From an uncultured Eubacteriales bacterium (GTDB lineage Bacteria; Actinomycetota; Coriobacteriia; Anaerosomatales; JAAXUF01), in the NCBI GenBank assembly GCA_964388455.1, contig CAYMAN010000009.1, forward strand, positions 9,711 through 73,710: a stretch of 64,000 nucleotides of DNA, written 5' to 3'. The notes beneath the pieces were generated by a model, which worked only from the letters and a program-made list of their open reading frames with translations, ran no database searches and was not told where the DNA came from. Below, piece by piece: positions 1,862-33,454 of the stretch (its first letter is position 1; the number at the start of each line of letters is the position of its first letter). Both the position numbers and the translations under genes were made by a program.

Positions 1862-2686
1862 GTGTACACTGCCCGCATGTCTGACTCAAGCGACATGCGG
1901 GTGGTGTTTCTCGGCTCCGGTTCCGGCGGCAACGCTGTTGCGGTGACCGACGGTGACACCACGGTACTCATAGACTGCGGTTTCTCGGCGCGTGAGGTGG
2001 CACGGCGCATGGCGCTGGCCGGTCTCGATGCGGGATCGGTCGACGCGATCCTGCTCACGCACGAGCACAGCGACCACCTGCGCGGGGTCGAGGTGTTCGC
2101 GAGGCGTCATGGGTGCGAAGTGCTCGCTACCACGGGCACCAGGCGTGCTGCCGGGCTCGACGCGATGGACGCTTGCGTGGTGGGCATCGCCGCCGGTTCC
2201 GAGGTGCGAGTGAAAACGTTGTCGGTGCTGCCGTTCCGCGTCTCGCACGATGCCGCTGAGCCGGTCGGTTTCCGTGTCACTGCAGCCGACGGCACCTGTT
2301 TCGGCCTGGCGACCGACACGGGGGTGCTGACGCCGGAGGCTGCGGAAGGGCTCGCGGGCGTCGATCTGCTGGGACTTGAGAGCAACCACGACCTGCGGAT
2401 GCTGGAAGCGGGGCCCTACCCCGGCTTCCTCAAGCGGCGCATCCTGTCGCGTGACGGGCACTTGTCCAATCCGGATGCGGCGGATGCACTGGAGGCGCTT
2501 GTGTCGAATCGCCTCAAACGGGTGGTCGCGGTACACCGCTCGGATACCAACAACACAGCATCGCTCGCGCGTCGCGGACTAGTGGCGCGTCTGGCCGCGA
2601 TCGGACTGGAGCTGCCGGTCGACGTGGCGCCGCAGAGCACGCCGCTCGACTGCAAACCATCGCAGGGGACGTTGTTCTCGGAGTAG
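1862..2686 (+). CDS. MBL-fold metallo-hydrolase (YycJ/VicX-like)
   Basis: Has the HxHxDH motif LLTHEHSDHLRG and an N-terminal VVFLGSGSGGN strand. The start is uncertain: GTG 1862, ATG 1877 or ATG 1895. Confidence 0.8.
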   Translation: MYTARMSDSSDMRVVFLGSGSGGNAVAVTDGDTTVLIDCGFSAREVARRMALAGLDAGSVDAILLTHEHSDHLRGVEVFARRHGCEVLATTGTRRAAGLDAMDACVVGIAAGSEVRVKTLSVLPFRVSHDAAEPVGFRVTAADGTCFGLATDTGVLTPEAAEGLAGVDLLGLESNHDLRMLEAGPYPGFLKRRILSRDGHLSNPDAADALEALVSNRLKRVVAVHRSDTNNTASLARRGLVARLAAIGLELPVDVAPQSTPLDCKPSQGTLFSE

Positions 2687-2690
2687 CGGG

Positions 2691-4007: not shown

Positions 4008-4010
4008 CGG
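3951..4010 (-). repeat. Four tandem 15-bp units (gtcggtgttcgtcgg x2, gtcggggcccgtcgg, gtcggggctcatcgg) inside a CDS
   Basis: Read directly from the sequence. The units encode the N-terminal pentapeptide repeats PDPTG/PDPTN/TDPTN of the ABC ATPase. Confidence 0.9.
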
Positions 4011-5071: not shown

Positions 5072-6008
5072 TCTCCTTCAGGCCCTCGACCACGCGCGGT
5101 CCGGGACGGGACACGAGGTTGTCGTCGAGGATGACGACACGACCGTTCTTTACCGCCGAGAGCTCACTGAAGCCAGCACGCTGCGACAGCTGAGCGGGAT
5201 CGCTCATCGAACCCTTGGTCGCCATGTACACCGCGGGGTTGTCCTTGACGACCTGCTCGGCCGAGTAGGCGACCCAGCTGGGCTGCGTGACGACGTTCTT
5301 GCCGCCAGCGAGCGTGATGAGCTCGTCGAGCAGCGTGCCGGTGCCGGCGGTGTAGAGCGGGTTCTGCGCGATCTCGACGAACGCGGTGACAGCGTCGGTG
5401 GCCTCGACCGACTTGACGACAGCGTCGACGTCGACCTTCATGCCATCGACGAGCGCGGCGGCCTGCGAGATGGCGCCGGTCGCCTTACCGGTGCGCTCAA
5501 TGGCGCTGTACACGCCGTCGAGGTTCTGCGGGTCCAACGCGATGACCGTGGCACCGAGCGCCTCGAGCTTGGCGAGCACTTCTGCCTGCACGCCTGTGGT
5601 CGCCAGAATCAGATCAGGCTTGGCCGCGGCGATCGCCTCGATGTTGGGTGTGGTGAAGTCGCCGATCTTGGTGATCTTGGTGACTTCGGCAGGGTAGTCG
5701 TCGTAAGTGGTGACGCCGACGACCTTCTCGCCAAGGCCGAGCGCGAACGCGATCTCGGTGTTGGCGGGCGCGAGCGAGACGATTCGCTGGGGCTCGGCCT
5801 TGATGGTGACGGTGCGGCTGGCGTCGTCGGTGATGGTCACCGGGAACGTTGCCGCGACTGCCTTGGGGGCCTCGGCGGCGGGCTTCTCGGCAGGGGCGGT
5901 ACAGCCGATGAGAGCGCTCAGGGCGAGCGCGGCGATGGCCACCAGGGCGAACCGGCGGGCGGTGCGGGTGGTGCGGACGTTGCGAGTGGTGCGGGCGTTA
6001 CGGGACAT
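5034..6008 (-). CDS. BtuF/FhuD-type periplasmic substrate-binding lipoprotein (ABC importer)
   Basis: Preferred start is ATG 6008, with GGAGGA upstream. Signal peptide plus lipobox (LIGC). Class III binding-protein features are present (VVGVTTYDDYP, PDLIL). Confidence 0.85.
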   Translation of the reverse strand: MSRNARTTRNVRTTRTARRFALVAIAALALSALIGCTAPAEKPAAEAPKAVAATFPVTITDDASRTVTIKAEPQRIVSLAPANTEIAFALGLGEKVVGVTTYDDYPAEVTKITKIGDFTTPNIEAIAAAKPDLILATTGVQAEVLAKLEALGATVIALDPQNLDGVYSAIERTGKATGAISQAAALVDGMKVDVDAVVKSVEATDAVTAFVEIAQNPLYTAGTGTLLDELITLAGGKNVVTQPSWVAYSAEQVVKDNPAVYMATKGSMSDPAQLSQRAGFSELSAVKNGRVVILDDNLVSRPGPRVVEGLKEIAAALHPDLVSK

Positions 6009-6054
6009 GCATCCTCCTTCAGGGGGTCGTGGTGGACGCGTCCCGCACACACAC

Positions 6055-6089
6055 GAAAACCCGCCACCTGCGATGCAGGATGAGCGGGT
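6055..6089 (-). terminator. Riboswitch expression-platform hairpin (intrinsic terminator/attenuator)
   Basis: On the minus strand: ACCCGC-tcat-CCTGC-atc-GCAGG-tg-GCGGGT followed by TTTTCG. It lies between the B12 aptamer and the binding-protein start codon. Confidence 0.55.
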
Positions 6090-6099
6090 CCTCGACTGG

Positions 6100-6330
6100 T
6101 TCGGAGCGGTTCGGGGTGATCGACGGGGTTCCGGCGACACCGCGAGCCGGCCTCAAGTCCTCGAAGGCCGCGTCGCGCATCACTCGGCAGGTCTCCTGAC
6201 TGGCGATCGCAGCACGCACGGTCGCATCACAGTGGCGGGTACCGTCCCGGATTCTCACCGGGTTCCCTATTCTCCCGCGGCTCTCGCGCACGGGCACCGA
6301 ATGACGCCTGTTCAATTGGCAATGCGGAGA
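6100..6330 (-). promoter_or_regulatory. Cobalamin (B12) riboswitch
   Basis: The minus strand carries AGGGAACCCGGTGAGAATCCGGGACGGTACCCGCCACTGTG (6228-6266) and the B12 box CCAGTCAGGAGACCTGCC (6186-6203). It sits directly 5' of the BtuFCD-like operon. Confidence 0.85.
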
Positions 6331-17241: not shown

Positions 17242-18315
17242 CTAGTCGTCCTCGGGCTGCCTCACGTGACAGCGCACGCAGAACGCGGGCTGATGACACT
17301 CGAAACAGCCGGCTGCGCCGCGCGCCTCGACCTCGAGGAAGTGCTGTTTGGCCCACGTGCCCTTGGTGGGGTCGTAGCTCACGTGGTGGCACATGCTGCA
17401 CAAGTCCGGCTTCTGCTTGTGGCACCTAGCGCACATCGCGCGGTTGGCCTCGGCGTTGATACCGTGCCCTGTCTTGCCCTGCCCCCAGCCCTCGGGGTGC
17501 GGCATCTCGAGGCCGTGACAGTCGGTGCAGAAGGCTTTGGTGTGGCACATGACGCACTGCTTGGGATCGGCCTTGGCAACCACCGCATGTCCGCGGTTCC
17601 ACTTCGCGGTCTTGTGTGACGTCGGCTTGAGCGCGTACCCGACCGGATGGCACACACTGCACTGCGCCGAGGCCGTGGGATACTTGGTCGTGCCGTGGCA
17701 GGTGAAGCACTGCGACATCAGCGACAATGGCGTGCCCCGATCAGGCAGCGGATGCGCAGTGCGGACGTGGCACGACACGCAAGATTTGTTGCGTTTCGCG
17801 TGCTCGGCGTGGTCGATGAGAATGCGGAAACCGGAGGTGGCCTTGCGGTTCACGTCGTGGCACTGCAGACAGATCTCGTCGGCCATAGGCTCCGTGCCGG
17901 GCAGGCGACCGTCGACCGGGTCAGGGTAGCCGCCGCGCACGTGCGCTACGACGTCGCGTGCCAGAAGTGCGGTCTGACTCACGACCGATTGCGGCACTTC
18001 GTACCACCGATGCGGGGCCGTGTGGCATCTCACGCAGCTCACCGCGGCGTGCGCCGACCGCTCCCAGGTCGCATGGCGCGGCTGCATCTCATGACAGCTC
18101 GCGCACAGGATCGGCGACGCGGTCACGACGTCCCACATGCCGAGCAGCACGATGATGCCGAACACGATCGCGACGATTCGCAGCACCCGTGGCCTCGCCG
18201 AGGACGCCGTGGCAGCTGTCGCCGGGGATTCGCCCACGCTTGACTCGGCGGTCAGCTCGGCTGCGCCCGCCTCCTCTGCTGGTCCCTGATCGCTCATGCC
18301 GGAAGTGTGCTCCAC
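17242..18315 (-). CDS. Membrane-anchored dodecahaem cytochrome c with an N-terminal NapC/NirT/NrfH-type tetrahaem domain
   Basis: GTG 18315 lies 5 nt after GAAGGA. One N-terminal TM helix, then 12 CXXCH motifs. The first four follow the NapC/NirT pattern (LCASCHEM..W..S.H....CVRCH ... CLQCH ... H.EH....CVSCH..TAH). Confidence 0.9.
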   Translation of the reverse strand: MEHTSGMSDQGPAEEAGAAELTAESSVGESPATAATASSARPRVLRIVAIVFGIIVLLGMWDVVTASPILCASCHEMQPRHATWERSAHAAVSCVRCHTAPHRWYEVPQSVVSQTALLARDVVAHVRGGYPDPVDGRLPGTEPMADEICLQCHDVNRKATSGFRILIDHAEHAKRNKSCVSCHVRTAHPLPDRGTPLSLMSQCFTCHGTTKYPTASAQCSVCHPVGYALKPTSHKTAKWNRGHAVVAKADPKQCVMCHTKAFCTDCHGLEMPHPEGWGQGKTGHGINAEANRAMCARCHKQKPDLCSMCHHVSYDPTKGTWAKQHFLEVEARGAAGCFECHQPAFCVRCHVRQPEDD

Positions 18316-18316
18316 G

Positions 18317-19189
18317 CTAGTCCTTCACGAGTTCGAGCGTCGGGTTGAAGTTGTCCCTGGGCACCTCGCCGTGACACTTCTTGCAGAATGCGCCCGTGTG
18401 GCACGCCTCGCAACTGCGGTGCTTCTTGACCTGTTCGCCGTGTGTCTCGCGCCACTTGGCGGTGTGCGAGCGCGGACGCATCTCGTGGCAGGTGGTGCAC
18501 CATGCCTCGTTCCACTTGTGGCACCTGGTGCAGTCGCCTCCCTCGGCCTTCTCGGCGTGGACGATCGTCCAGCTGGCGGCCTTGTGCGTCGCGGGTGCGG
18601 CTTTGTCGGTATGGCAGGTGGGGCACCCGTTCTTGGCAGTCTTGCCGTCGTGGCAAGTCAGGCAGCCGGTCATGGGCGGCGTGTTCTTGCCCTCGGGACT
18701 TTTGTCGTGGACCAGGTAGTTGTGGCACTCGATGCAGTCGAGCTTGAGGATCGAGACATGCGCGCGGTGCGGGATCAGGAGGTCACCCTTGGGCGAGACG
18801 GTGCGCAGATCCAGGTGACAGCGCTCGCATGCGGCATTGGTCGGCTTGGGGAACGTTGCCGGTTCCCAGTCCGGCATTGCCAGCGACAGGTAGAACTCGC
18901 CGAGCATTCGCACCGCGTAGCCAGACTGCGGGAGGACCCGCGGTGGCACGTGGCACTGCTGGCAGGTCGTTTTCGCGTGGACCGACTTTTCCCATGCCTG
19001 GTACTTGGGGTTCATGCGTTCGAACCGCTGCAGGAACGCCGGCCGAGTCCCGATGTAGGCCGGCACGATCACCAGAACGAAGATGCCGAAAGCCACCAGG
19101 CCCCACAACAGCAATCGTTTGCGCTTCTCGGCGGGCGTGGTCGGCTGCTCGGTGTCCATGATCTCCGGACTCTCGTTGGTCTCGGGCAT
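18317..19189 (-). CDS. Membrane-anchored nonahaem cytochrome c (paralogue)
   Basis: ATG 19189 overlaps the upstream stop (TGATG). One TM helix and 9 CXXCH motifs. Confidence 0.9.
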   Translation of the reverse strand: MPETNESPEIMDTEQPTTPAEKRKRLLLWGLVAFGIFVLVIVPAYIGTRPAFLQRFERMNPKYQAWEKSVHAKTTCQQCHVPPRVLPQSGYAVRMLGEFYLSLAMPDWEPATFPKPTNAACERCHLDLRTVSPKGDLLIPHRAHVSILKLDCIECHNYLVHDKSPEGKNTPPMTGCLTCHDGKTAKNGCPTCHTDKAAPATHKAASWTIVHAEKAEGGDCTRCHKWNEAWCTTCHEMRPRSHTAKWRETHGEQVKKHRSCEACHTGAFCKKCHGEVPRDNFNPTLELVKD

Positions 19190-20058
19190 CAGTGGCACTT
19201 CCCGCAGAACTTCTTCTCGTCGTGGCAGACGAGGCAGCCCTTGCCGCCCGTCGTCGCACGCTCGGCGTGGCCCGTCTTCCAATTACCGACGTGCGTCGCG
19301 GGACGCCGTTTGTGGCAGTCGGCGCAATAGTCAGGCGTCCAGTTGTGGCACTTGCCGCAGTCCATCGTCTCCGACATCGTGCCGTGCACCTTGAGCCAGT
19401 CCTTGCGCTCGTGCGTCTCGGGCGTCTCCTTGCGGGTGTGACAGTCGGTGCACTTGTTCGATGCCTTCTTGCCGTCGTGGCAGGTCTCGAGACACATCTC
19501 CATCTCGGGACGGTTGAATCCCCGGTTGTTCACCGTGTGCACCAGATCCTTGTGACACACCGTGCAGTTCATTCCGAGGACCTCGACGTGCGCCCGGTGC
19601 GGAATCAGCAGGTCGCCGTTGGGCGAGACCTGGCGGTAGTCGGTATGACACTTCTGACAGGCTTCATGCGTGGGCGGCTCGAGCAGGTTGGTCTCGTTCG
19701 CACCCTGCGCGAGCTGCGAGTAGAACGCCGGGATCGACCTGGCCGAGAAGGACGCAAACCCCTTCACGCCCGGCTCGACGTGACAGCTCACACAGCTCAT
19801 ACGGCCGTGCGTGGACGTGCGCCACGCCTCCATCCGCTCATGCATGCCCGGGTAGCGTGCGTAGTATCCCGGCTGCAGCGTGGAGAACACCGGCAGCACC
19901 AGCAGGAAGACGACCAGCGCGAGCAGCGCGCCGATGACGATGCGGCGCGTTGGGCGCAGCTTCTTGGGCGCGGGGGCGTCGGCGTGGGGCGCTTGGGCCG
20001 CCGGCGTCTCCGCGACCTTGTCGTCCGACGGGCTCAGGGTGTCGTCGCGCTCGTCCAC
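19189..20058 (-). CDS. Membrane-anchored cytochrome c, 8 CXXCH + 1 CX3CH (paralogue)
   Basis: GTG 20058 directly abuts the upstream TAG stop. One TM helix. CLETCH lies at 19477-19494. Confidence 0.9.
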   Translation of the reverse strand: MDERDDTLSPSDDKVAETPAAQAPHADAPAPKKLRPTRRIVIGALLALVVFLLVLPVFSTLQPGYYARYPGMHERMEAWRTSTHGRMSCVSCHVEPGVKGFASFSARSIPAFYSQLAQGANETNLLEPPTHEACQKCHTDYRQVSPNGDLLIPHRAHVEVLGMNCTVCHKDLVHTVNNRGFNRPEMEMCLETCHDGKKASNKCTDCHTRKETPETHERKDWLKVHGTMSETMDCGKCHNWTPDYCADCHKRRPATHVGNWKTGHAERATTGGKGCLVCHDEKKFCGKCH

Positions 20059-21072
20059 CTAGCGCATCTCCTTGAACTGCTTGTGGCAATCCTCGCAGTA
20101 CTGCTTCTTGTGGCACTCGAGGCAGCGTGCCTCGTTCTCGCCCAACTTCGAGTGGCCGCCGATCCAGGTGTCGGTAGAGCCGTGGAAGTCCGGTCGCGTG
20201 GTGTGGCATTCCTGGCACTGCGCATCGGACACGTGGCAGAGCAGGCACTTGGGCCGATCCTTGAGCGCCTCGGCGCCGTGCTGCTTCATCCAGGTCTTCT
20301 TGGTGTGCAGCACCTCGATAGCCTTCAGGCTGGTCTGCATCGGCCGGGCGGTGAACACCGGCGTCTTGCCGGTGGTGTGACACATGGTGCACTGCGCAGC
20401 GGTATGGCAGGTCTCGATGCAGCCGTTCGCACCGACGCGCTGAACCACTGCGGGGTGATCGACCTTCCACTGCACAGCGGTCTCGCCCAGTGCGTGGTGG
20501 CAGGTGAAGCAGTCCGTGCTCTTCTTGGTGCCGACGTGGCAGCCGTACGACACGCACACGCCGGAAAACGGCATCTTCTTATGCTTCACCATCACGGTGG
20601 GCTGGTGCGCGGTCCACTTGTGACAGGTCACGCAGTCGCGCGTCTCGCTTGCAACGCGCATGTGCGCGGGGTGCGGGATGCGGCTGGTGCGCTTGATGTC
20701 GTCGCTCCGGTCCGTGATGTGACACGAGCGGCACGCATCGCGCGTCGGCCGATCGAACTTCAGGAACCTCGTGGGCGCGTTGCGGCTGAGCAGCCCGGCG
20801 TAGAACTCCGCCGAGACGGCCAGCTGGTAGCGGACCTGACCGCGCGCGGGGACGTGGCAGCTCGCGCACGGGATGTCCTGGTGCGTTGATGCGGCAAGTG
20901 TCGTCGAGCTTTTCGCCAGCGAGTGGAACCGGGAGAAGAACGCCGGTTGCGTCGCCGCGATCATCGGCAGGATGGCCAGCACGACCACGGCCACCAGGAT
21001 GCCGACGGCGATCCACTTCACGGTGAGCGGGTTGATCCCCCAGCGCGACTTCTTGGTCTCGTTCGGGCTCAT
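20059..21072 (-). CDS. Membrane-anchored cytochrome c, 9 CXXCH + CX4CH + CX3CH (paralogue)
   Basis: ATG 21072 lies 7 nt after the nrfD-like stop. One TM helix. CVSYGCH (20536-20556) and CIETCH (20404-20421). Confidence 0.9.
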   Translation of the reverse strand: MSPNETKKSRWGINPLTVKWIAVGILVAVVVLAILPMIAATQPAFFSRFHSLAKSSTTLAASTHQDIPCASCHVPARGQVRYQLAVSAEFYAGLLSRNAPTRFLKFDRPTRDACRSCHITDRSDDIKRTSRIPHPAHMRVASETRDCVTCHKWTAHQPTVMVKHKKMPFSGVCVSYGCHVGTKKSTDCFTCHHALGETAVQWKVDHPAVVQRVGANGCIETCHTAAQCTMCHTTGKTPVFTARPMQTSLKAIEVLHTKKTWMKQHGAEALKDRPKCLLCHVSDAQCQECHTTRPDFHGSTDTWIGGHSKLGENEARCLECHKKQYCEDCHKQFKEMR

Positions 21073-21079
21073 CGGCTGG

Positions 21080-22414
21080 TCACCCGACCTTGGCGGTGTC
21101 AGCGGCGAACTCGGGGGTCAACGCGGGTCCGCGGTGCGGCGTCGGCTCGGCGGCGGGCTCGAGCGCGGGCTCCGGCGGGTCGTAGGGCGACGGGCCGTGA
21201 TGCGCATGCTCGGCGAGCTCCTCCTCGGGCACGTGCAGCGGGAGGATCTTGGTGGCGGCCGTCATGATCAGCAGGCCGAACGATAGGATGAAGATCGCGA
21301 TGCCGACCTCGGTCAGGCTCGGCATATACGGCGGCGTGAACTGGCCGAGGGGGTTGACCGCGAAGCCCATCGCCATGAGCGAGTAGCGCTTGAGGAAGAT
21401 CGCGAGCACGTACATCGCCGCCGCGGTCAGCTGAACCGCCGGCAGATGTCGCGTGCTCTTGCGGGACAGCAGGATGAACGCGGTGATCCCGAGGATGAGC
21501 ACAGGGACAAAGGCGAACGCGTAGTCGCCGGTCAGGAACTCGGCGAAGCGGATGGTGTGGCCCGGCTTGGCCGAGGTCGGCCAGAAGATGGTGAGGATCT
21601 CAACGACCAGCAGGAAGAGGTCGATGATGATGACCGTCGCGAGCAGCGTCGAGAGGCTCCGGAACATGCTCGGCTTGAACTTGGTGACCTTCAGCTTCTG
21701 CATGATGTAGGCCGAGATCATCAGGAGTGCTATGCCCGACGCTGTGGCCGAGGTCAGGAAGATCGGGACCATGACGGCCGAGTTCCACAGCTCGCGCGAC
21801 TTGTTCATCGAGAGCACGAACGCCGTCGTGGTGTGGAGATAGACCGCGAACGGGAGCGCGATGAGCGTCATGCGGGTCGCGAGTTTCTCGCCGCCCTTGC
21901 CGGTGATGAGAATCCACAGGTCGACGAAGCAGATGATCATGTAGATGTTGGCCGCACTACCGGTGTAGACGAACGGCGAGGTCACGTTGGGCGTGAGCAG
22001 CATGTAGACCGCGCGCCACGGGCGCTCCATGTCCGTGATGATGCCCATGAGCGCCATCATGACCAGCACGCCGGCCTGCAGGACAGCGATACGGGAGAGC
22101 GGCCGGAACTGCTCGGCGCCAAAGAGGTGGACGCTGGCGTAGACCACGAGCCCGCCCGCCGAGAGCCCCACGTAGTACATATAGTTAGTGAACCAGAGGC
22201 CCCACGGGTAGTTGTCGCGCATCGCCATGACGGCGCCGCCTTCGGTCATCGCCGCGCCCCATGACATGAGGCCGAGGATGAGGCCGCAGCCGAGCAGCGA
22301 GACGAAGGCCCAGTAGCGCGGGCTCGCGTTCAGTACGGCGCCGACGTTCCAGTCGATGCCGATGAAGCGCTTGATGCCGGGTCGAGGTGTGGACACGAGA
22401 CTCACGCCCATCAC
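21080..22414 (-). CDS. NrfD/PsrC-family polytopic membrane (quinol-interacting) subunit
   Basis: A 444-aa protein with many TM helices and an NrfD-like N-terminus (YWAFVSLLG..., NYPWGLWFTNYMYYVGLSAGG). Start overlaps the upstream stop (ATGA). Confidence 0.9.
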   Translation of the reverse strand: MMGVSLVSTPRPGIKRFIGIDWNVGAVLNASPRYWAFVSLLGCGLILGLMSWGAAMTEGGAVMAMRDNYPWGLWFTNYMYYVGLSAGGLVVYASVHLFGAEQFRPLSRIAVLQAGVLVMMALMGIITDMERPWRAVYMLLTPNVTSPFVYTGSAANIYMIICFVDLWILITGKGGEKLATRMTLIALPFAVYLHTTTAFVLSMNKSRELWNSAVMVPIFLTSATASGIALLMISAYIMQKLKVTKFKPSMFRSLSTLLATVIIIDLFLLVVEILTIFWPTSAKPGHTIRFAEFLTGDYAFAFVPVLILGITAFILLSRKSTRHLPAVQLTAAAMYVLAIFLKRYSLMAMGFAVNPLGQFTPPYMPSLTEVGIAIFILSFGLLIMTAATKILPLHVPEEELAEHAHHGPSPYDPPEPALEPAAEPTPHRGPALTPEFAADTAKVG

Positions 22415-23367
22415 CCCACATACCAGATCATAGGTTCATTGCCGTACTCTTCCTTGAGCCGCATGACGCGGCGGGTCTTCAGCAGAATCGAGACCTCGCT
22501 CTCGGGGTCGTTCAGGTCCCCGAACTTGCGAGCGCCGACCGGACACGCCTCGGTGCAGGCGGTGGTGCCGCCGTTGCGCGTGCGCTGGACGCAGAAGGTG
22601 CACTTCTCCACGACGCCGGCCTTCTCATGGAGAGGGACCTTGGGGTTGATCTCGGCCTTAGGGACCTCGGGCTCGACCCAGTTGAAGTGCCGCGCGGCGT
22701 AGGGGCAGGTGACCATGCAGTTGCGGCACGCGATGCACTTGTCGTAGTCGATGACCACGATGCCGTCCGGGTCCTTCCAGGTCGCGATGACCGGGCACCC
22801 GTAGACGCACGTGGGCTTGGCGCACTGCATGCACTGGACGGGCAGGTACCACTTCTCGGGGTCGCCACCCTCTTTGTACTCGGCGTTGGAGTGCTCGAGG
22901 TCGAAGCCGCCCACGTCCATCTCGAGCACCTGGATGTAGGTGAAGCCGGAATTGCGGCCGATGTTGTTCTCCTTGACGCACGCGTAGACGCACTTGCGAC
23001 AGCCGATGCAGGCCTTCACGTCGATGACCATCGCCCAGTTCTGATCGCCGGGCTCATCGGCGTAGCTGACCGTGTGGCCGGGGTAGTTGACGGGGTGGTT
23101 CTCCTCGATGATGTGGTCGATCGCCTCGTTGCCGGTGGACTCACGCGCGGATTCCTCGGCGATGGCGACCTGCGGGAGGGCCGAGACCACCGCGGGGATG
23201 ACGCCCGCTGCCACGACGCCGGCGCCGATGCCGAGACTCTCGAGGAAGCGTCGGCGCGAGACCGTGTGGCCGGGCTCGCAGGCTCCCGGCTGACACGCAC
23301 CCGGTTCAGGAGCGCCGGGTACGGTTGCACCGGGCTGCTGCGCCCCGGGCACGATGGGCTTGCTCAT
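22411..23367 (-). CDS. Tat-exported 4x[4Fe-4S] ferredoxin-type subunit (NrfC/PsrB/HybA/ActB-like)
   Basis: ATG 23367 overlaps the upstream stop (ATGA). Twin-arginine motif SRRRFLESLG. Four Cys clusters: CIGCRKCVYAC, CMQCAKPTCVYGCP, CIACRNCMVTCP, CTFC...CTEACP. Confidence 0.9.
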   Translation of the reverse strand: MSKPIVPGAQQPGATVPGAPEPGACQPGACEPGHTVSRRRFLESLGIGAGVVAAGVIPAVVSALPQVAIAEESARESTGNEAIDHIIEENHPVNYPGHTVSYADEPGDQNWAMVIDVKACIGCRKCVYACVKENNIGRNSGFTYIQVLEMDVGGFDLEHSNAEYKEGGDPEKWYLPVQCMQCAKPTCVYGCPVIATWKDPDGIVVIDYDKCIACRNCMVTCPYAARHFNWVEPEVPKAEINPKVPLHEKAGVVEKCTFCVQRTRNGGTTACTEACPVGARKFGDLNDPESEVSILLKTRRVMRLKEEYGNEPMIWYVG

Positions 23368-24116
23368 GTGCGTGCCCTTCCTAGTATCAGCCAGCCGATG
23401 AGACCGGCGGCGATGACGATGAGGACCGAGGCTCCGAGGGTGAGCCACAACGGCGTGTGCACCGGCGGCGCGACGGGCGGAGATGCGAGCGGCGTGAACA
23501 CAGCGCGTTCCGAGACCGCGCGCACCTGGAAACCGGTGCCGACAAACGGAAGCAGCGGACCGGCGTAGATCCACTGCGGGCTGTGCGGGTCGTGACACCC
23601 TGCGGCGGTGCACTTGGCGAGCCGCTTGCCGTGGGTGCCGGCCAGCCACTCCTTGTACTTGGGCGAGTGGCACTTCTCGCAGACCCTGGCGACGTCGCCC
23701 TTGATGTCGACGGTGGTGCCGTCCATGGTCTTGAGCTTGCCGGGGTTCTTGGCGGCGTCGTCGTGGCAGACGAGACACGCCTCGCCTTCCGCGGCCAGTC
23801 GATCGTGACCGACGAGCTTGACCTGATGCCCCTTGAAGTCGTTGGGCAGCTTCTTGGTCGGCTTTCCGCCCGCGCCCATGACCACCGGATGGCAGTCCGT
23901 GCACGGGTAGAAGAACAGATCGCCCGAGGCGGCCTGCCCGGCAAACGCCGCGGGCGCGGTCGCCAGAACAACCGATGCGACCAAAACGAGAAGTAGGGAA
24001 ACAACTACGAAAGCCCCGCGTGACCAGGGGCGGCTCCGGGCCGTGAGTCCCGGATCTGTGAACGAATGCTGCACGTCTATGGTATTGACACCACCTTGGT
24101 CGCGAGTTGTTCCCAC
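23364..24116 (-). CDS. Tetrahaem cytochrome c3-like protein with signal peptide and C-terminal TM anchor
   Basis: GTG start. Signal peptide ending AFA-GQ. Haem motifs CTDCH, CLVCH, CEKCH and CTAAGCH (CX4CH, 23592-23612). The C-terminal hydrophobic helix is LWLTLGASVLIVIAAGLIGWLIL. Confidence 0.85.
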   Translation of the reverse strand: MGTTRDQGGVNTIDVQHSFTDPGLTARSRPWSRGAFVVVSLLLVLVASVVLATAPAAFAGQAASGDLFFYPCTDCHPVVMGAGGKPTKKLPNDFKGHQVKLVGHDRLAAEGEACLVCHDDAAKNPGKLKTMDGTTVDIKGDVARVCEKCHSPKYKEWLAGTHGKRLAKCTAAGCHDPHSPQWIYAGPLLPFVGTGFQVRAVSERAVFTPLASPPVAPPVHTPLWLTLGASVLIVIAAGLIGWLILGRART

Positions 24117-24175
24117 ACGATCAAGGACGAGACTAGCACCGCCCCTGACCTCCCCTATTCGCGAGTGATTACCGT

Positions 24176-24193
24176 ATTGTTAGCATTGTGTTA
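24176..24193. promoter_or_regulatory. Candidate response-regulator/promoter element (direct repeat in an AT-rich patch)
   Basis: ATTGTTA-gc-ATTGTGTTA lies inside the only AT-rich stretch of the 24117-24260 divergent intergenic region. This is a tentative call. Confidence 0.25.
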
Positions 24194-24260
24194 ATGCCCA
24201 TTCCGACGTCGTCGGCTATGGTCAGGCATGAAAAGTGCCGCGGTTTCCAAAGGAGCGCAC

Positions 24261-24944
24261 GTGACCAAACGCGTTCTGGTCGTCGATGACGAGGAATCGA
24301 TCCTCAAGGTGGTCTCCTACGCCCTGTCGCAAGCGGGCTATGAGGTCCACACCGCCGCCGACGGCACCGGCGCCGAGTTCATGTTCTCCGAGGTCAAACC
24401 GGATCTCGTCATCCTCGACGTCATGCTGCCCGGCAAGTCCGGACTCGACGTCGCACGCGACCTGCGGACGCACTCCAATACCCCCATCATCATGCTCTCC
24501 GCGCGCGGGGACGAGGTCGACCGCATCCTCGGCCTCGAGTTTGGCGCCGATGACTACGTCACCAAGCCGTTCTCGCCTCGCGAGCTCGTCAGTCGCGTCA
24601 AAGCGATCCTGCGTCGCGTCGACACCGTCCCGGACGCTGCCGCGTGCCTCCAGGTGGGCGACCTCGAGATCGACACGCTCGCTCGGCAGGTGAAGTTGTC
24701 GGGGCAGGCGATGCACCTGACCAGCTCCGAGTACGGCATCCTGCTGTATCTCGCCCGGCACCCCGGCACCGCGTACTCGCGCCAGGCGATCCTCTCGGCG
24801 TTGTGGGAGGAGTCACCGGTGGGCGACGAGCGCGCGGTCGACGTACACATTCACAACATCCGCGAGAAGATCGAGGAAGATCCCAAGAACCCGACGTATC
24901 TGCTCACGGTCCGTGGCTACGGGTACCGGCTGAGAGAGTCGTAG
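24261..24944 (+). CDS. OmpR/PhoB-family response regulator
   Basis: GTG 24261 follows AAAGGAG. Receiver domain (VLVVDDE, DLVILDVMLPG) plus a winged-helix output domain (LLTVRGYGYRL). Confidence 0.9.
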   Translation: MTKRVLVVDDEESILKVVSYALSQAGYEVHTAADGTGAEFMFSEVKPDLVILDVMLPGKSGLDVARDLRTHSNTPIIMLSARGDEVDRILGLEFGADDYVTKPFSPRELVSRVKAILRRVDTVPDAAACLQVGDLEIDTLARQVKLSGQAMHLTSSEYGILLYLARHPGTAYSRQAILSALWEESPVGDERAVDVHIHNIREKIEEDPKNPTYLLTVRGYGYRLRES

Positions 24945-24951
24945 GCCCGCC

Positions 24952-26736
24952 ATGCCGAGGAAGCCGTGGCGCGCGTCGATCCGCCTGTGGCAGACTTCGC
25001 TGTTCGTCGCCGTCATCATGGTCGCGATCCTGATTCTGTCCGGATCGCTCTCGGCGGGGCTCAAGACCACGTTGACTCAGATGTCTGAGGCAAACGAGCT
25101 GCGCAACGCATCCGCGCTCGCGCGCCGGCTCGAGGCCGAGTTCCCGCTTACCGCAGCGAGCATCGAGCGCGTGCGCCAGGACCTGCTTGAGTATCGCGAC
25201 ATATATGGGTCGAGCATCTGGGTCTACAACGCGTCGGGCCGACTCATCGACTCGGCCAATGACAGCGGGCCGGGTCAGGAGGCGCTCGACGCCGCCCGCG
25301 CGGCCGTGAAAGCCGGCGACACCGCCTATGCGACCGTCGACCTGCGCGCGGGTGGGTGGGTCGTCGCCGCCAAGCCGATCATCGCCGCCGACGGCAAGAC
25401 TGAAGGCACCGTGGTGACCGCCGGCTCCGTGGCCGATTCGCTCGCAATCCTCGCCGCGGTCCGCTTCCGGCTGTGGATCACCTTCTGGGTATCCCTGCTG
25501 GTGGCCGGGTCGCTCGGCTACTGGTTCTCGTCGCTGATGGGCAAGCGCATCCGCGAGATGTCGGAGGCCGCCATCGCGATCGCCGACGGCGACTTCGAGC
25601 AGCGCCTCCCGACCGGGTACGTGCCGGATGAGATCTACGACCTCGCCGACTCCTACAACCGCATGGCCGTGAGCCTGGGCGAGGCGTTCGGCGCGGTGCA
25701 GGAGAGCCAGCAACGACTGTCAGCCGTGGTCGCGTCGATGGCCGAGGGGCTCGTGTCGTTTGACTCCAAGGGCGTCGTGCGCGTCATCAACCAGGAGGCC
25801 GCTCTGCTGCTAGGGCTGGGCAATCCCGGCGACGGAATCGACCGTGAACTCGTAGGCACACCCGCCGAGGAGTTGGCCCCCGATGCAGAGGTGCTCGATA
25901 TCATCCGCACGGGACTCGTCGGCGACAGCGTCGCCAAGACCGTGGGCCTGGGCGGCTACACCGTGCTGCTGCACTGCACGCCACTGATCGGTACCACCGG
26001 CAACCTGCGTGGCGCCGTGCTCCTGCTCGCCGACGTGACCGAACAGCAGCGCATCGAAGACGCGCAGCGCCGCTTCATCGCCGACGCGAGCCACGAGATG
26101 CGCACGCCGCTCGCAGCACTCAAGGGCATCCTCGAGCTGCTCATCGACGGCGCCGCCGAGGATCCTGCCGTCCGAGACGACTTCCTCTCGACGATGCAGT
26201 TCGAGGCCGACCGTTTGGGCCGCCTCGTCACCGACCTGCTCACACTCGCACAACTCGAGGCCGGTAGCCTGCAGCTCAAGGTCACCTCGGAGTCCGCAGC
26301 CGACCTGCTCGGCAGCGTCGCCAGCGTCATGAACACCCTGGCCGAGCGCGCCGGAGTCACACTCGCGGTCGACCTCCCCGACGGCGACGTCCGCGTGATG
26401 GCCGACCGCGATCGCGCCGTACAGGTCCTGCTCAGCTTCACCGACAACGCCCTCAAGCACTCCCCCCGAGGCTCGACCGTACGCCTGCGTGCCGTTCGCC
26501 GAGACGAGCGCGTCCTCTTGGCCGTAGCCGACGAGGGCTCCGGCATCAACGCCGAGGAGCTCACGCGCGTCTTCGAGCGTTTCTACCGGGCCGATGCTGC
26601 ACGCGCCGGCGGTGGCGGCGCGGGCCTGGGCCTCGCGATCGCCAAGGAGATCGTGGAAGCGCACGGCTCCAGCATCGAAGTGCACTCCGAGCCGGGCACG
26701 GGAACCACGTTCGGCTTCGAGCTGCCGATCGCGTAG
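24952..26736 (+). CDS. Sensor histidine kinase (two TM helices with an extracytoplasmic loop, then HAMP, PAS-like, HisKA, HATPase_c)
   Basis: H-box ADASHEMRTPL and the G-boxes GAGLGLAIAKE / GTGTTF. TM helices at about aa 12-35 and 160-185. Confidence 0.9.
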   Translation: MPRKPWRASIRLWQTSLFVAVIMVAILILSGSLSAGLKTTLTQMSEANELRNASALARRLEAEFPLTAASIERVRQDLLEYRDIYGSSIWVYNASGRLIDSANDSGPGQEALDAARAAVKAGDTAYATVDLRAGGWVVAAKPIIAADGKTEGTVVTAGSVADSLAILAAVRFRLWITFWVSLLVAGSLGYWFSSLMGKRIREMSEAAIAIADGDFEQRLPTGYVPDEIYDLADSYNRMAVSLGEAFGAVQESQQRLSAVVASMAEGLVSFDSKGVVRVINQEAALLLGLGNPGDGIDRELVGTPAEELAPDAEVLDIIRTGLVGDSVAKTVGLGGYTVLLHCTPLIGTTGNLRGAVLLLADVTEQQRIEDAQRRFIADASHEMRTPLAALKGILELLIDGAAEDPAVRDDFLSTMQFEADRLGRLVTDLLTLAQLEAGSLQLKVTSESAADLLGSVASVMNTLAERAGVTLAVDLPDGDVRVMADRDRAVQVLLSFTDNALKHSPRGSTVRLRAVRRDERVLLAVADEGSGINAEELTRVFERFYRADAARAGGGGAGLGLAIAKEIVEAHGSSIEVHSEPGTGTTFGFELPIA

Positions 26737-26906
26737 CACGCCGGGCACACGAGCGCCCTGTTGCAGTCCGCGATGCTCACGAAACCCTAACAAGACAGAA
26801 ACCGAGCGCGAACCTACGCCGCTTGGAACGGGGTCATATTCTCTGTAGCAACTTGAGACGGAATTCGCGTGTCCACCGGGCGGCGAATCGTTGGAGGGAA
26901 AAGGTC

Positions 26907-27470
26907 ATGGCAGTCTTCTTCGCAGGAATCCTCATCGTAGTCGGGCTCGTGAGCGCAGTCGCCGTCGCGGTCGCGGTCCCGCTCCTCTTCGGCCTTATGG
27001 CATTCGATGTGGCCGAGTCCCGCAAGAATGCGGTCGTCTCCCCCAAAGACGCACCGCTCCGTATCGCGGTCGAACGTGGCGTCGCTCGCGCTTTCGTCAT
27101 CGCCGGCGGTGCGTTCTGGTCAGTCGCGATGTTCATGGGCCTCACTTCCGGCGGCTCTTCCGGCGCCGTGATGCTGGGTGCGTTCGTACCGCTGGTCGCC
27201 GTGGCAGCCACGCTGATCATCGGCTGGTACTACGAGCGCGCCGCTGCGGTGCTGCTGGTCGCAGCTTCGTTCGCAGTGCTCGCATGGGGCGTCGTCTACC
27301 AGTTCGAGGCTGGCGTGTGGCTGATCATGACGTTCGCACTCCTCGGCCCGATGCTCACCGCAGCCGTGCTGTTCTGGATGGCCCGCACCGAGCAGGAGCA
27401 GTTCGAGTTCGCGATGGCCGCCAGCCCGCAGCTCGCCCCGATCTTCTCGGCAAGGAGCACGATCAGCTAA
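26907..27470 (+). CDS. Hypothetical integral membrane protein
   Basis: ATG 26907 follows GGAGGG. Multiple (about 5-6) hydrophobic helices. No recognised motif. Confidence 0.55.
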   Translation: MAVFFAGILIVVGLVSAVAVAVAVPLLFGLMAFDVAESRKNAVVSPKDAPLRIAVERGVARAFVIAGGAFWSVAMFMGLTSGGSSGAVMLGAFVPLVAVAATLIIGWYYERAAAVLLVAASFAVLAWGVVYQFEAGVWLIMTFALLGPMLTAAVLFWMARTEQEQFEFAMAASPQLAPIFSARSTIS

Positions 27471-30650: not shown

Positions 30651-32237
30651 ATGAACCACAGAACTCGGAGAACCGCGTGCGCACGCAGCTGTCTGGTGGC
30701 GTTCTCGCTGCTGACCGGTCTACTGATTGCCGCATCTGCGATCCCCTCGGGGGCGTTCGCCGCACCATCGCCGCATGTGAGCGCCACCGCCAACACCACG
30801 AGTTGCAGCGCGTGTCATCGCGTACACAATGCTCCCGCGGACTCGATGTTTTTGGGTGCCGCTGACGCTTCCGGTTCGATCACGGCCTCGTGTCTGTCCT
30901 GCCACAACGGCAGCGATAGCGATGCCTCCAACATTGTCGACGGGTCCTCTGACTCCTTCGGCCAGCCCAGCGGACACACCCTCAGCGCCAATAGCGCGGG
31001 CACAGCGGATATCGATGGCTGCGCCACGTGTCACGATGCCCACGGCTCATCGTCCGAGACGCGCCGGATACCTGCGAAAGAGATCAACGGCGTCGCGATC
31101 TCATCGGCGGGTAACCAGTCGTGCCTCGCATGTCACGCGACGAACGCAGACTGGTTTGGGCCCGGCTATCCCGAGGCAGACGCCCCCACGCGCGACGCGG
31201 CCGGCTACCCGGTTGCCGGAACGTGGCCGGGCAAGGCCTCCTACGAGTCGACCTCCAACGCGCATCGGCTGATCCCGGAGTCGACGCGGACCGTCGGCGT
31301 CAGCGAACCGATTCGTCGCCAGCAGGGCGACTGCACCTACTGTCACGGCGCGCACGGTGGCGCGAACGACTACGACGGCCTCAAGGCCACCTACACCGTG
31401 CCGACACAGGCGACACTCGCCTCAGACACCGCCGACGGCTCGTACGCGGCGCTGTGCTTCACATGTCACGGTGGCGATAGGCCGGCTGGATTCGCCACCA
31501 CACCGGTCGACATCAAGAGCTTCGCCACGGCGGGCGGCGCCGGTGGTCACTCGGTCGTCACCTCCGGCGGCACGCTGCCGGTCGGCTCTCCGCTGCCGTG
31601 CTTCGAATGCCACAACCCACACGGCTCCACACGCCAGAACAGCTCGCTGCTCTCCGACGAGCGCGGCGCGTCACTCGCAACCACCAACGCCGCGGACGTC
31701 CGTGCGTTCTGCTTCACATGCCACACCACGAGCGACAGCGCATCGGGCTGGAACAGCGTCACGAGCACCTACACCGCAGTCCCCGCAGCCGAGGAAGTCG
31801 TCGGCCTCTCCCGCCAGGCCGGCGTGCTTCGCCTCCCGGCAGTCGCCGCCCATGAGCAGGCCGCGGCGGACTCGTGCTACACCTGCCACGGCAACAGCTA
31901 CGCGGCGGGCGGCTCCAACGTGCACAATCCCGGCGAGGCAACCGTCGCGAACTTTGGCAGCAACCTAGCCTCGACCACCGACGGCGCGATGGTTCCGTCG
32001 GCCACAGCCGATGCGACCGCCACCGTCGATACCAGCGCGTCAGTCGACGCGACGGTCAGCATCCCGACATCGCCGACAGTGCCGGCAACCGACACGCTTG
32101 TGCCGAGCTGGTCGGATCTGGGGACGCCGTTCCTGGAGAGCACGCCGACACCGCTGTCGGGGTCGCTGCTCGAGTCGCTGACATCATCGATGCCGTCGTC
32201 GGACTCTGCGACGGGCTCCTCGACACCGTTGCCGTAG
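30651..32237 (+). CDS. Secreted nonahaem cytochrome c (doubled-CXXCH type) with a Ser/Thr/Pro/Ala-rich C-terminal tail
   Basis: Signal peptide ending AFA-AP. Nine CXXCH motifs, several of the form CxxCHxxHG (CATCHDAHGS, CTYCHGAHGG, CFECHNPHGS). The last ~110 aa are low-complexity S/T/P/A/D. No TM helix or LPXTG motif is seen. Confidence 0.85.
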   Translation: MNHRTRRTACARSCLVAFSLLTGLLIAASAIPSGAFAAPSPHVSATANTTSCSACHRVHNAPADSMFLGAADASGSITASCLSCHNGSDSDASNIVDGSSDSFGQPSGHTLSANSAGTADIDGCATCHDAHGSSSETRRIPAKEINGVAISSAGNQSCLACHATNADWFGPGYPEADAPTRDAAGYPVAGTWPGKASYESTSNAHRLIPESTRTVGVSEPIRRQQGDCTYCHGAHGGANDYDGLKATYTVPTQATLASDTADGSYAALCFTCHGGDRPAGFATTPVDIKSFATAGGAGGHSVVTSGGTLPVGSPLPCFECHNPHGSTRQNSSLLSDERGASLATTNAADVRAFCFTCHTTSDSASGWNSVTSTYTAVPAAEEVVGLSRQAGVLRLPAVAAHEQAAADSCYTCHGNSYAAGGSNVHNPGEATVANFGSNLASTTDGAMVPSATADATATVDTSASVDATVSIPTSPTVPATDTLVPSWSDLGTPFLESTPTPLSGSLLESLTSSMPSSDSATGSSTPLP

Positions 32238-32470
32238 CGCCGCGCCCCAGCAAGACATGCGCTCGACGCGCTCGGCTGCGACTACGGGTACAAACCCCGC
32301 AGACGTCGCCGACCGAAGATGCGTCCCATGGTCCCCGCTCCCCCGCTCGGCATCAGCGTCGACATCACGGTTCATTCCCGTTGGGCCCGCCCGCACGACA
32401 ACTCGGACGCGCTCCTGGGCATAGACCGAAGCGTGGGTGCAGGCACACGACCACGAGAGATGGGCCGACG

Positions 32471-33454
32471 ATGCGACTGCTCTTCCTCGGTGGAAGCGGG
32501 ATGATCAGCACGGCGACCAGCCGGACGGCGATTGCTGCCGGCCACGAGGTCTATGTGCTCAACCGCGGGCTCACGGCTTCCGCCCTGCCCTTGTCCTGCA
32601 CGCTGACCGCAGACCTGCGCGACCCCGACGCCTCACGCGCCGCGCTCGATGGCATGCGATTCGACGCGGTCGTCGACTGGATCGCCTACACCGCGGGTGA
32701 CGTCGAACGCCATCTGGATCTGCTGCGCGGCCGAGTGGGGCAGCTCCTCTTCATCAGCTCCGCCTCGGTCTACGAGAAGCCGCCTGCGAACTACCTGATC
32801 ACGGAGTCGACGCCCGTCCGCAACCCGTTCTGGCAGTACGCGCGCGCCAAGATCGCCTGCGAGGAGCGCCTGATGCGCGCGTATCGCGACGAAGAATTCC
32901 CGGTAACGATCGTGCGCCCCTCGATGACGTACGACCACAATCTCCCCATCGCGCTTGGCGGCTGGGGCACCTACACGCTCGCCGACCGACTGCTGACCGG
33001 CCTCCCGGTCATCGTGCACGGCGACGGCTCGTCGCTGTGGGTTGTCACTCACGCCGACGACCTCGCACGCGGCATCCTCGGCCTACTCGGGAACGCGCGG
33101 GCGATTGGCGAGGCGTTCCACATCACGTCCGACGAGGTCCTGTCATGGGACCAGATCTATCGGATGACCGCCGAGGCGCTCGGCGTGGAAGCGGACATCG
33201 TGCACATCCCATCCGACTTCATCGCGGACGTCGCCCCGCAGATGGCGGGCAGCCTGCTCGGCGATAAGACGTGGAGCGTGGTGTTCGACAACAGCAAGAT
33301 CAGGGAGTTCGTGCCCGGCTTCGAGGCCCGGATTCCGCTGCGCGACGGCATCCGGCGGACGCTCGATTGGTTTGCGGCCGACGCGAGCCGGCGGACCGTG
33401 GACGCAGCGGTGAACACCGAGCTCGACCGGATTCTCTCGGCCTACGGACGCTAG
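32471..33454 (+). CDS. NAD-dependent epimerase/dehydratase (extended SDR) family protein
   Basis: ATG 32471. Glycine-rich FLGGSGMIS and the catalytic YARAK. The track ORF 31874..33454 carries a spurious 5' extension. Confidence 0.8.
   Translation: MRLLFLGGSGMISTATSRTAIAAGHEVYVLNRGLTASALPLSCTLTADLRDPDASRAALDGMRFDAVVDWIAYTAGDVERHLDLLRGRVGQLLFISSASVYEKPPANYLITESTPVRNPFWQYARAKIACEERLMRAYRDEEFPVTIVRPSMTYDHNLPIALGGWGTYTLADRLLTGLPVIVHGDGSSLWVVTHADDLARGILGLLGNARAIGEAFHITSDEVLSWDQIYRMTAEALGVEADIVHIPSDFIADVAPQMAGSLLGDKTWSVVFDNSKIREFVPGFEARIPLRDGIRRTLDWFAADASRRTVDAAVNTELDRILSAYGR

Follow-up and report, generated by a model that had tools for sequence, protein, structure and literature searches.

This analysis concerns a seven-gene operon for multihaem cytochromes and an NrfCD-type membrane module, which lies on the minus strand at positions 17242–24116 of a 64,000-nucleotide stretch of DNA (contig CAYMAN010000009.1, assembly GCA_964388455.1) from an uncultured bacterium of the Coriobacteriia. 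The whole stretch is referred to as the window, and the genes are numbered g1 to g7 in their 5' to 3' order within the operon. An earlier note on this DNA had described seven same-strand, translationally coupled genes and had proposed that their products conduct electrons from the membrane to the surface of the cell. A check of the open reading frames (ORFs) of the window finds all seven on the minus strand where that note had placed them, and a third-position GC content of 0.77–0.92 speaks for the coding status of each. Computed results comprise gene structure, synteny and repeats, domains and cofactor motifs with their conservation, the fold of g3 and the NrfH-site residues of g7. The operon is composed as follows:

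g1, 23364..24116, minus strand: exported tetrahaem cytochrome c with a Sec signal peptide, three CXXCH and one CX4CH motif and a C-terminal membrane helix
g2, 22411..23367, minus strand: ferredoxin-like subunit exported by twin-arginine translocation (Tat), with four [4Fe-4S] motifs, of the NrfC/PsrB/ActB2/DsrO type
g3, 21080..22414, minus strand: 10-helix integral membrane subunit of the NrfD family, ActC-like, with a presumed quinol/quinone site
g4, 20059..21072, minus strand: 11-haem cytochrome with an N-terminal anchor, nine CXXCH, one CX3CH and one CX4CH motif, without the NrfH haem-1 site
g5, 19189..20058, minus strand: 9-haem cytochrome with an N-terminal anchor, eight CXXCH and one CX3CH motif, a putative relay paralogue
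g6, 18317..19189, minus strand: 9-haem cytochrome with an N-terminal anchor and nine CXXCH motifs, a putative relay paralogue
g7, 17242..18315, minus strand: 12-haem cytochrome with an N-terminal anchor, carrying a predicted NrfH/NapC-type quinol-dehydrogenase module and eight further haems

Architecture of the operon and its products

The junctions are as tight as had been described, namely an ATGA overlap of g1 and g2 at 23364–23367, a 7-nt gap between g3 and g4 (21073–21079), the TAG of g4 abutting the GTG of g5 at 20058/20059, a TGATG in which g5 and g6 have base 19189 in common and a TAG-c-GTG at 18315–18319 which leaves 1 nt between g6 and g7. Only the overlap of g2 and g3 at 22411–22414 needs correction, as it reads GTGA and not ATGA; an alternative ATG start of g3 at 22411–22409 would turn this junction into TGATG, and the two genes are predicted to be coupled whichever start applies. 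An exact sequence look-up of g3 gave no match, probably as gene callers chose a different start. The true start of g1 may equally lie at ~24074, where gene callers place it 14 codons later to give a product of 236 aa (P0406). At the N-terminus of g2, a Pro/Gly-rich stretch of ~36 residues with two extra Cys (GACQPGAC) precedes the twin-arginine motif, which may represent a long n-region of the Tat signal or, alternatively, may indicate that the true start is located downstream of the ATGA overlap.

Upon recounting, g1 and g4 to g7 contain 41 CXXCH and four variant motifs (CX4CH in g1 and g4, CX3CH in g4 and g5), in total 45 haem motifs with 11, 9, 9 and 12 in g4 to g7, in exact agreement with the earlier figures. 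With the composition of the non-cytochrome proteins of the window, ~0.009 CXXCH would be expected by chance in 1523 residues, and outside the operon at least two CXXCH occur in only two further ORFs in all six frames of the window. The motif counts, including CX3CH and CX4CH, are kept in orthologues from 35–42 other genomes, and every Cys of the five cytochromes lies within a haem motif and is ~100% conserved, variant motifs included. As conserved His outside the motifs amount to 4 in g1, 11–12 in g4, 8 in g5, 8–9 in g6 and 11 in g7, nearly every haem can be bis-His coordinated, as expected for electron-transfer haems. No CXXCK motif is present in any of the seven products.

With respect to topology, one N-terminal helix was found in each of g4 to g7 and a signal peptide followed by a C-terminal hydrophobic helix in g1, the arrangement of anchors that had been proposed. 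Since g1 has a Sec signal, g2 a Tat signal and the anchors of g4 to g7 follow the positive-inside rule, all cofactors are placed on the outer face of the membrane. The distance from anchor helix to first haem motif is ~9 residues in g7 and ~30 in g4 to g6 (range ~9–34), and a sortase motif is found in none of the five cytochromes.

The first three products have the composition of a quinol-coupled trio. In a domain search, g1 matches the cytochrome c7 and paired-CXXCH families, and in its orthologues (n=36) 8 Cys and, outside the motifs, 4 His are conserved, which fits four bis-His haems; the C-terminal hydrophobic segment is kept in 30/35. The g2 product (318 aa) has the twin-arginine motif SRRRFLESLG and four cluster motifs, just as reported previously; the latter comprise 16 Cys, and the protein matches Pfam Fer4_11 with 65.6 bits. 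Its best NCBIfam match is DsrO with 178.8 bits, below the cut-off of 200, followed by QrcC (153 bits, cut-off 400), and HmcB scores 94 bits (cut-off 420). The closest solved relatives of g2 are ActB (6f0k_B, 6.5e-34) and then PsrB (2vpw_B), with the alignment on ActB restricted to residues 776–997, the iron–sulfur (FeS) module.

That g3 belongs to the NrfD family, as had been stated, is evident from a score of 119.1 bits against PF03916 (cut-off 25.8) over profile positions 2–310 of 313. Among NCBIfam models, DsrP comes first with 143.6 bits, below its cut-off of 350, and HmcC (67 bits, cut-off 550) and QrcD (61 bits, cut-off 570) follow. The AlphaFold2 (AF2) model of g3, with a mean predicted local distance difference test (pLDDT) of 76.8 and a predicted template modelling score (pTM) of 0.76, was matched by Foldseek to the ActC chains 8k9e_C, 6btm_C and 6f0k_C with a template modelling score (TM) of 0.72, E values of 1e-12 to 3e-10 and ~410 aligned columns. 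On the ActC of four structures of alternative complex III (ACIII) the TM of 0.72 is clearly above that on ActF (0.57) and on the 8-helix PsrC (0.39/0.61, with TMt 0.61), so that the model shows an NrfD-type helical bundle. Against PDB sequences, the family profile of g3 matched ActC alone, and a phmmer search with the single g3 sequence found no match among them; orthologues of g3 are 70–93% identical. Proximity of g2 to ActB and PsrB and of the g3 model to ActC thus supports the proposal made in the earlier note that cytochrome, Tat-exported FeS protein and NrfD subunit would constitute a genuine quinol module.

The remaining four products, g4 to g7, are paralogues on one scaffold, with identities of 41% between g5 and g6 and 27% between g4 and g7, and g4 to g6 match c7/c3-type families in a domain search. 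The motifs of g4 are kept in 31/35 orthologues, with 22 Cys and at least 22 His conserved, and the nine CXXCH of g6 in 37/39. In 10/37 orthologues of g5 a plain CXXCH takes the place of the CX3CH, in support of the latter as a real haem site.

It is g7 that stands out among the paralogues. Against the NapC/NirT/NrfH family PF03264 it scores 49.2 bits (cut-off 24.1) and possesses the helix and haem 1 of this family, while g6 remains just under the cut-off with 23.6 bits and g4 and g5 do not match. NrfH (2j7a_C) aligns to the N-terminal module of g7, in which haem 1 is bound by C71xxCH, ~9 residues past the membrane helix and in a CXXCHxM context; a Met and an Asp of g7 align to Met49 and Asp89 of 2j7a_C. 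The Met of CXXCHxM is found in 93/120 orthologues and is replaced by Ile or Leu in 25, and 119/120 have the counterpart of Asp89; 23 His are invariant, comprising 12 proximal ligands and 11 others. The haem-1 motif is missing from g4, g5 and g6 at the NrfH position, and only g7 retains the quinol-site haem of NrfH, which is new relative to the earlier note. We read g7 as the sole putative NrfH-type quinol dehydrogenase of the operon and g4 to g6 as probable relay or storage cytochromes. The previous description of the anchored cytochromes as NapC/NirT-like quinol dehydrogenases consequently stands for g7, and not for g4 to g6, which have lost the quinol-site haem.

Conservation, host lineage and predicted regulation

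A synteny scan limited to a single genome for each species gave 44 loci, every one of them in a metagenome-assembled genome (MAG) of uncultured Coriobacteriia/Actinomycetota. The order g1 to g7 together with a divergent response regulator and a kinase is intact in ~33/44 of them, which answers the neighbourhood search suggested previously; the remaining loci are cut at contig ends or show one of two variant layouts, with g7 upstream of g1 or divergent from it. These rearrangements of g7 are found in loci L040–L043. In a sub-clade (L033, L037, L041, L043 and L045) which includes the MAG UBA2279, an extra 11-haem paralogue, ~25% identical to g5, is located beside the response regulator at about 2000–3900 on the minus strand of the respective loci, and the kinase gene is displaced.

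Relatives of g7 form 371 clusters at 90% identity, and every named one is from a MAG of Coriobacteriia, Actinomycetes or Actinobacteria. In an exhaustive search the superfamily proves larger and more diverse, with 2351 representatives at E<1e-3, of which only 103 are below 1e-30, and distant members occur in Candidatus Aquicultor and Armatimonadota. The g1 family, on the other hand, consists of only 133 clusters, all derived from metagenomes or MAGs.

UBA2279, the MAG which represents one of the operon loci, gave its name in GTDB to a family now called Anaerosomataceae, of the order OPB41/Anaerosomatales (PMC9686372). Two cultured Anaerosomatales possess a Gram-positive wall, encode 17–18 multihaem cytochromes and use H2 or formate as donors for the respiration of sulfur compounds or Fe(III) (PMC9686372). 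As all 44 loci are from Coriobacteriia/Actinomycetota, a PASTA kinase is encoded in the window and the cultured relatives have a Gram-positive wall, a monoderm, actinobacterial host is supported, and with it the thick-walled organism assumed in the earlier note. The two cultured organisms seem to lack the operon. The Fe(III)-reducing isolate Parvivirga is reported to be without the FeS and anchor subunits of the complex iron–sulfur molybdoenzyme (CISM) type (PMC9686372), which implies that it has no NrfC/NrfD-type subunits at all, and the operon is probably absent there.

Divergent from g1, a two-component system and a small membrane protein are encoded, accompanied by two repeat elements:

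Response regulator, 24228..24944, plus strand: OmpR/PhoB family, divergent from g1, with Response_reg and Trans_reg_C domains
Sensor histidine kinase, 24952..26736, plus strand: two membrane helices flanking an outside domain of ~135 residues, then HAMP, PAS, HisKA and HATPase domains
Small polytopic membrane protein, 26823..27470, plus strand: 215 residues, 3' of the kinase gene, where 31 loci have a homologue
Tandem direct repeat TTAACACAATG-CTAACAATACGG-TAATCA, 24165..24194, minus strand: in the g1/regulator promoter region of 111 nt, with a possible -10 element after the repeat
Second related repeat CTCACGAAACC-CTAACA, 26776..26792, plus strand: upstream of the gene for the small membrane protein, with 2 mismatches

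The response regulator, which scores 237 bits against the PhoB model and thereby remains under its cut-off, adjoins the operon in almost every locus long enough to include this position, and the kinase is kept beside the regulator across the loci. No haem sensor is evident in the kinase, because its outside domain of ~135 residues is without Cys. The small membrane protein, for which no family match above threshold was found and only a weak match to DUF7670, probably belongs to the same regulon.

The repeats, which the earlier note did not contain, are phased by 11 bp as CTAACAnnAACC-CTAACA in the g1/regulator promoter and conserved among loci L002–L046. In the orthologous intergenic regions CTAACA is present in 31/32 and two TAAC[AC] units exactly 11 nt apart in 22/32, and the consensus across these regions is GCTAACACAACC-CTAACAnnACGG-TAAT. 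The second element, CTCACGAAACC-CTAACAAGAC...GCGAACCT, is not significant alone and is kept at the same place in most of the 31 loci. The conservation and location of the repeats suggest that they are likely the operator of the adjacent OmpR/PhoB-type response regulator. A pho-box-type site which replaces the -35 element is a layout known from PhoB promoters, and the 11-bp repeat, which precedes a possible -10 element, is read as such a site. A scan for sigma-70 promoters and terminators returned 0 promoters, and terminators at chance level. A wider regulon within the window was considered and set aside, since a search with the operator pattern gave only the two sites beside the two-component system, a count not significant alone.

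Relation to known systems and route of electrons

The system closest in architecture to g1–g3 is ACIII (ActABCDEF), with which the operon shares an anchored multihaem cytochrome, a Tat-exported four-cluster FeS subunit and a 10-helix NrfD-type quinol subunit, as well as the placement of every cofactor on the outer side of the membrane. In contrast to ActB, which has a molybdopterin-like B1 domain, g2 consists only of Fer4 domains; ACIII combines ActC with ActF, ActD and ActE, whereas the operon has one NrfD gene and no ActF, ActD or ActE; ActA has 5 haems and an N-terminal helix, whereas g1 has 4 haems and a C-terminal anchor; and the operon adds four anchored cytochromes carrying 41 haems. 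In this sense it resembles an ActABC core to which an enlarged NrfH family has been joined. With NrfH, NapC, NirT and CymA, g7 has in common the helix followed by haem 1, the CXXCHxM context, the conserved Asp and a PF03264 score above threshold, but these proteins are tetrahaem while g7 has 12 haems and g4 to g6 are without haem 1. Against the NrfH equivalog TIGR03153, g7 reaches 60.3 bits where the cut-off is 134.2, and an NrfA partner is not encoded in the operon.

A cytochrome, FeS and NrfD trio is also present in DsrJOP, and DsrO and DsrP are the best NCBIfam matches of g2 and g3. The scores are below the cut-offs, though, neither DsrM (cytochrome b) nor DsrK (CCG domain) is found in the operon or its flanks, and DsrJ has a His/Cys-ligated haem while g1 has no spare Cys, all 8 being in haem motifs. 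QrcABCD and HmcABC of sulfate reducers have the same periplasmic cytochrome, FeS and NrfD trio, but equivalog scores are under the cut-offs and no QrcB or HmcD–F is encoded. As for porin–cytochrome conduits (MtrCAB, Pcc), each of the seven products has an assignment other than a porin, and the lineage is monoderm. Membership of ACIII, DsrMKJOP, Qrc, Hmc, NrfABCD/NrfHA and porin–cytochrome systems was thus rejected, as a defining subunit or score is lacking in each case.

Clusters of 'NrfD + 4Fe-4S + multihaem' composition have been proposed as menaquinone:cytochrome c oxidoreductases in metal reducers (PMC7082337), and with the clusters of Methanoperedens and the Cbc-type clusters of Geobacter the operon shares an NrfD-like subunit, a 4Fe-4S protein and exported multihaem cytochromes without a catalytic molybdopterin subunit. 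Their proposed role, the transfer of quinol electrons to multihaem cytochromes outside the membrane, is likened here by gene content and description. The Methanoperedens clusters encode 3- to 6-haem cytochromes, the Cbc-type clusters a few larger ones, and the hosts are archaea or diderms; the operon, by contrast, has five anchored cytochromes (45 haems), four of them NrfH-derived, a monoderm actinomycetotal host and a dedicated two-component system. The operon is filed under this kind, with the oxidoreductase activity predicted from gene content. Within this kind it is distinguished by its 45 haems, four NrfH-derived anchored paralogues, occurrence only in monoderm Coriobacteria-type Actinomycetota and a dedicated regulator. 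A literature search found no published description of this operon, in line with the novelty suspected in the earlier note, yet the kind of cluster to which it belongs is already recognized (PMC7082337); papers on Dethiobacter and Carboxydothermus concern different clusters.

For Gram-positive chains, CymA-like, ActA-like and anchor-fused multihaem proteins have been proposed as membrane quinol oxidizers (PMC7829351). Thermincola potens and Carboxydothermus ferrireducens share with the present case, by description, a monoderm host and multihaem cytochromes. In these organisms the wall or surface cytochromes OcwA and OmhA have been identified and the quinol oxidizers are single proteins, whereas the seven products of the operon, with localization as predicted, include no wall or surface component, all five cytochromes having a membrane helix and no sortase motif.

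On balance, we consider it somewhat probable that the operon encodes a lineage-specific menaquinol:multihaem-cytochrome oxidoreductase hub, through which electrons would probably enter a respiratory chain with its acceptors outside the cell. By itself it is not a wire through the cell wall. For assembly into one complex, direction of electron flow, use of menaquinol and identity of the acceptor we infer the following sequence of events. Quinol would be oxidized at the ActC-like g3, and g1 would receive the electrons via the four clusters of g2, by analogy with transfer from ActC via ActB to ActA in ACIII, and hand them on to the anchored cytochromes g4 to g7, with a probable second electron entry at the NrfH-type haem 1 of g7. 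The electrons would spread over ~45 mostly bis-His haems held at the membrane surface and leave to separate, genome-variable partners, namely secreted or lipoprotein cytochromes; the final acceptors would be Fe(III)/Mn(IV), humics or soluble compounds. It is probably the adjacent OmpR/PhoB-type two-component system that turns expression on, via the pho-box-like 11-bp repeats. In the window, two cytochrome genes beyond the operon come into question as partners:

NrfA/cytochrome c552-family lipoprotein (LMLGGC), 49–1848, plus strand: 155 bits to Pfam Cytochrom_C552, with six CXXCH, a CXXCK (CVQCK) and a CGDEGCH motif
Secreted 9-haem cytochrome, 30651–32237, plus strand: 78 bits to Paired_CXXCH and 55 bits to MtrC/MtrF domain II/IV

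The motifs of the first point to a probable NrfA-like reductase with eight haems, extended at the N-terminus by a trihaem segment. It is far under the NrfA equivalog cut-offs and is a possible electron acceptor of the operon. Its gene is 15 kb from the operon, and near the operon an NrfA-like gene was found in 1/44 other loci, L035, where it carries 4 CXXCH and 1 CXXCK and lies 1.2 kb downstream of g7. The second ends in a Ser/Thr/Pro-rich tail of ~110 residues, has no sortase motif and is a candidate for a cytochrome embedded in the wall or located at the surface; it is encoded 6.5 kb from the operon, and a homologue is found directly 3' of g7 in L007 only. Multihaem genes near the operon differ from genome to genome, so that the operon looks like the conserved end, at the membrane, of a modular chain with outer parts that vary between genomes. 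The idea that the operon includes a fixed terminal reductase or surface cytochrome was rejected, the extra neighbouring cytochromes being sporadic among the loci.

Several observations weigh against such a menaquinol-oxidizing hub. A single operon would hold two potential quinol sites, one of NrfD and one of NrfH type. Neither of the two cultured Anaerosomatales yielded detectable respiratory quinones, quinone-related metabolism is hinted at in the window only by a UbiB-like kinase, and among the named relatives of g1, g3 and g7 there is no cultured organism. The AF2 model of g7 is of moderate quality (pLDDT 76.5), and a Foldseek search with it against the PDB returned no structural neighbour.

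Among the alternatives, an ordinary supply chain, in which the complex feeds conventional extracytoplasmic reductases that act on soluble substrates, for example the NrfA-type octahaem lipoprotein (with nitrite, sulfite or hydroxylamine), as an elaborate equivalent of NrfH/NrfBCD, is unlikely but deserves consideration. The NrfH-like g7, the NrfC/NrfD-like g2 and g3, the CXXCK-containing Cytochrom_C552/NrfA-family lipoprotein of the window and the gene arrangement in L035 would all fit; but the rarity of an NrfA-like gene close to the operon and its distance here do not, g2 and g3 score nearest to DsrOP and ActBC and not to NrfCD, scores against the NrfH, NrfC and NrfD equivalogs are far under the cut-offs, and known Nrf systems need no 41 extra haems. 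Distinctly less probable is a single ~45-haem supercomplex of all seven proteins with two quinol sites, where OPB41-type Actinomycetota would choose the site of entry by acceptor potential. The ActC/NrfD-type site may then be proton-coupled and the NrfH-type site not, and the complex would serve as an electron reservoir and docking platform at the membrane surface, the sensor-kinase-switched base of a porin-free monoderm route of exchange with minerals, partners or electrodes.

The wall-spanning haem wire favoured in the earlier note, with the seven proteins forming a continuous haem chain from membrane through wall to surface for metal or electrode reduction or electron uptake, appears quite improbable. 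It would agree with 45 conserved haem sites, a monoderm lineage that includes an obligate Fe(III) reducer, the lack of a catalytic reductase in or beside the operon in most genomes and the MtrC-domain cytochrome 6.5 kb away with its homologue next to g7 in L007. The geometry of the products, on the contrary, argues against it: every cytochrome has its own membrane helix with a linker of ~9–34 residues, the four paralogues cannot align radially, and because each is tethered by a short linker, they cannot stack end to end away from the membrane. Decahaem MtrA is roughly 8 nm long, and by analogy we estimate that the ectodomains of ~230–290 residues with 9–12 haems would reach only some nanometres. 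None of the five cytochromes has a sortase motif, genes for putative surface cytochromes accompany the operon inconsistently, and the Fe(III)-reducing Parvivirga probably does without it. The haem count, from which extracellular transfer had been deduced, does not by itself imply such a function, as 16-haem HmcA sits in a periplasm-to-cytoplasm complex.

More doubtful still is a reverse flow as in Qrc or Hmc, whereby the haem array collects electrons from outside (from a hydrogenase or formate dehydrogenase of periplasmic type, a syntrophic partner, a cathode or Fe(II)), to be used by the NrfCD module for the electrogenic reduction of menaquinone. QrcC (153 bits) follows DsrO among the matches of g2, and HmcC (67) and QrcD (61) follow DsrP among those of g3; the cultured relatives grow with H2 or formate (PMC9686372); and a precedent exists in Qrc, which is described as a cytochrome c:menaquinone oxidoreductase with all sites periplasmic (PMC6303296, PMC13059093). 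Yet g7 keeps the site residues of the NrfH quinol dehydrogenase, a QrcB-like or HmcE/F-like subunit is lacking, the Qrc and Hmc equivalog scores are far under the cut-offs, and the group 1i hydrogenase of the relatives has its own cytochrome b (PMC9686372).

With respect to its significance, routes from the quinone pool to outside acceptors are known for monoderms only in outline and in few Firmicutes, and nothing comparable has been defined for Actinomycetota. The operon, conserved and well delimited, is a candidate for the initial step of extracytoplasmic respiration in OPB41 and relatives, a lineage of the subsurface and sediments that is cosmopolitan, for the most part uncultured and includes Fe(III) and sulfur respirers. 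It offers as handles a marker gene set for metagenomics and metatranscriptomics, a predicted operator with its sensor kinase and, in its NrfH paralogues, a natural series in which the quinol haem is either present or absent. Should the products form a single complex, few quinol oxidoreductases described so far would be richer in haem.

Other genes of the window

The window is otherwise an ordinary piece of chromosome, with a dnaK-grpE-dnaJ operon, clpB, lon, a catalase and the PASTA kinase. The gene for the secreted 9-haem cytochrome (30651–32237) overlaps an ORF for an epimerase (31874–33454) by ~360 nt, and one of the two starts is probably wrong. Adjoining the NrfA-like gene, an ATP-binding cassette transporter of the FecCD permease/ATPase/Peripla_BP_2 type (2691–6140, minus strand) is encoded, a type which takes up iron-siderophore, haem or cobalamin. 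The UbiB-like gene mentioned above encodes an atypical kinase of the ABC1/UbiB family (39957–41669, plus strand), which matches the UbiB model with 318 bits, under the cut-off. Finally, a typical haem catalase (46645–48252, plus strand; Pfam 624 bits) is encoded in what is probably a strict anaerobe, and agrees with the catalase-positive phenotype reported for cultured Anaerosomatales.

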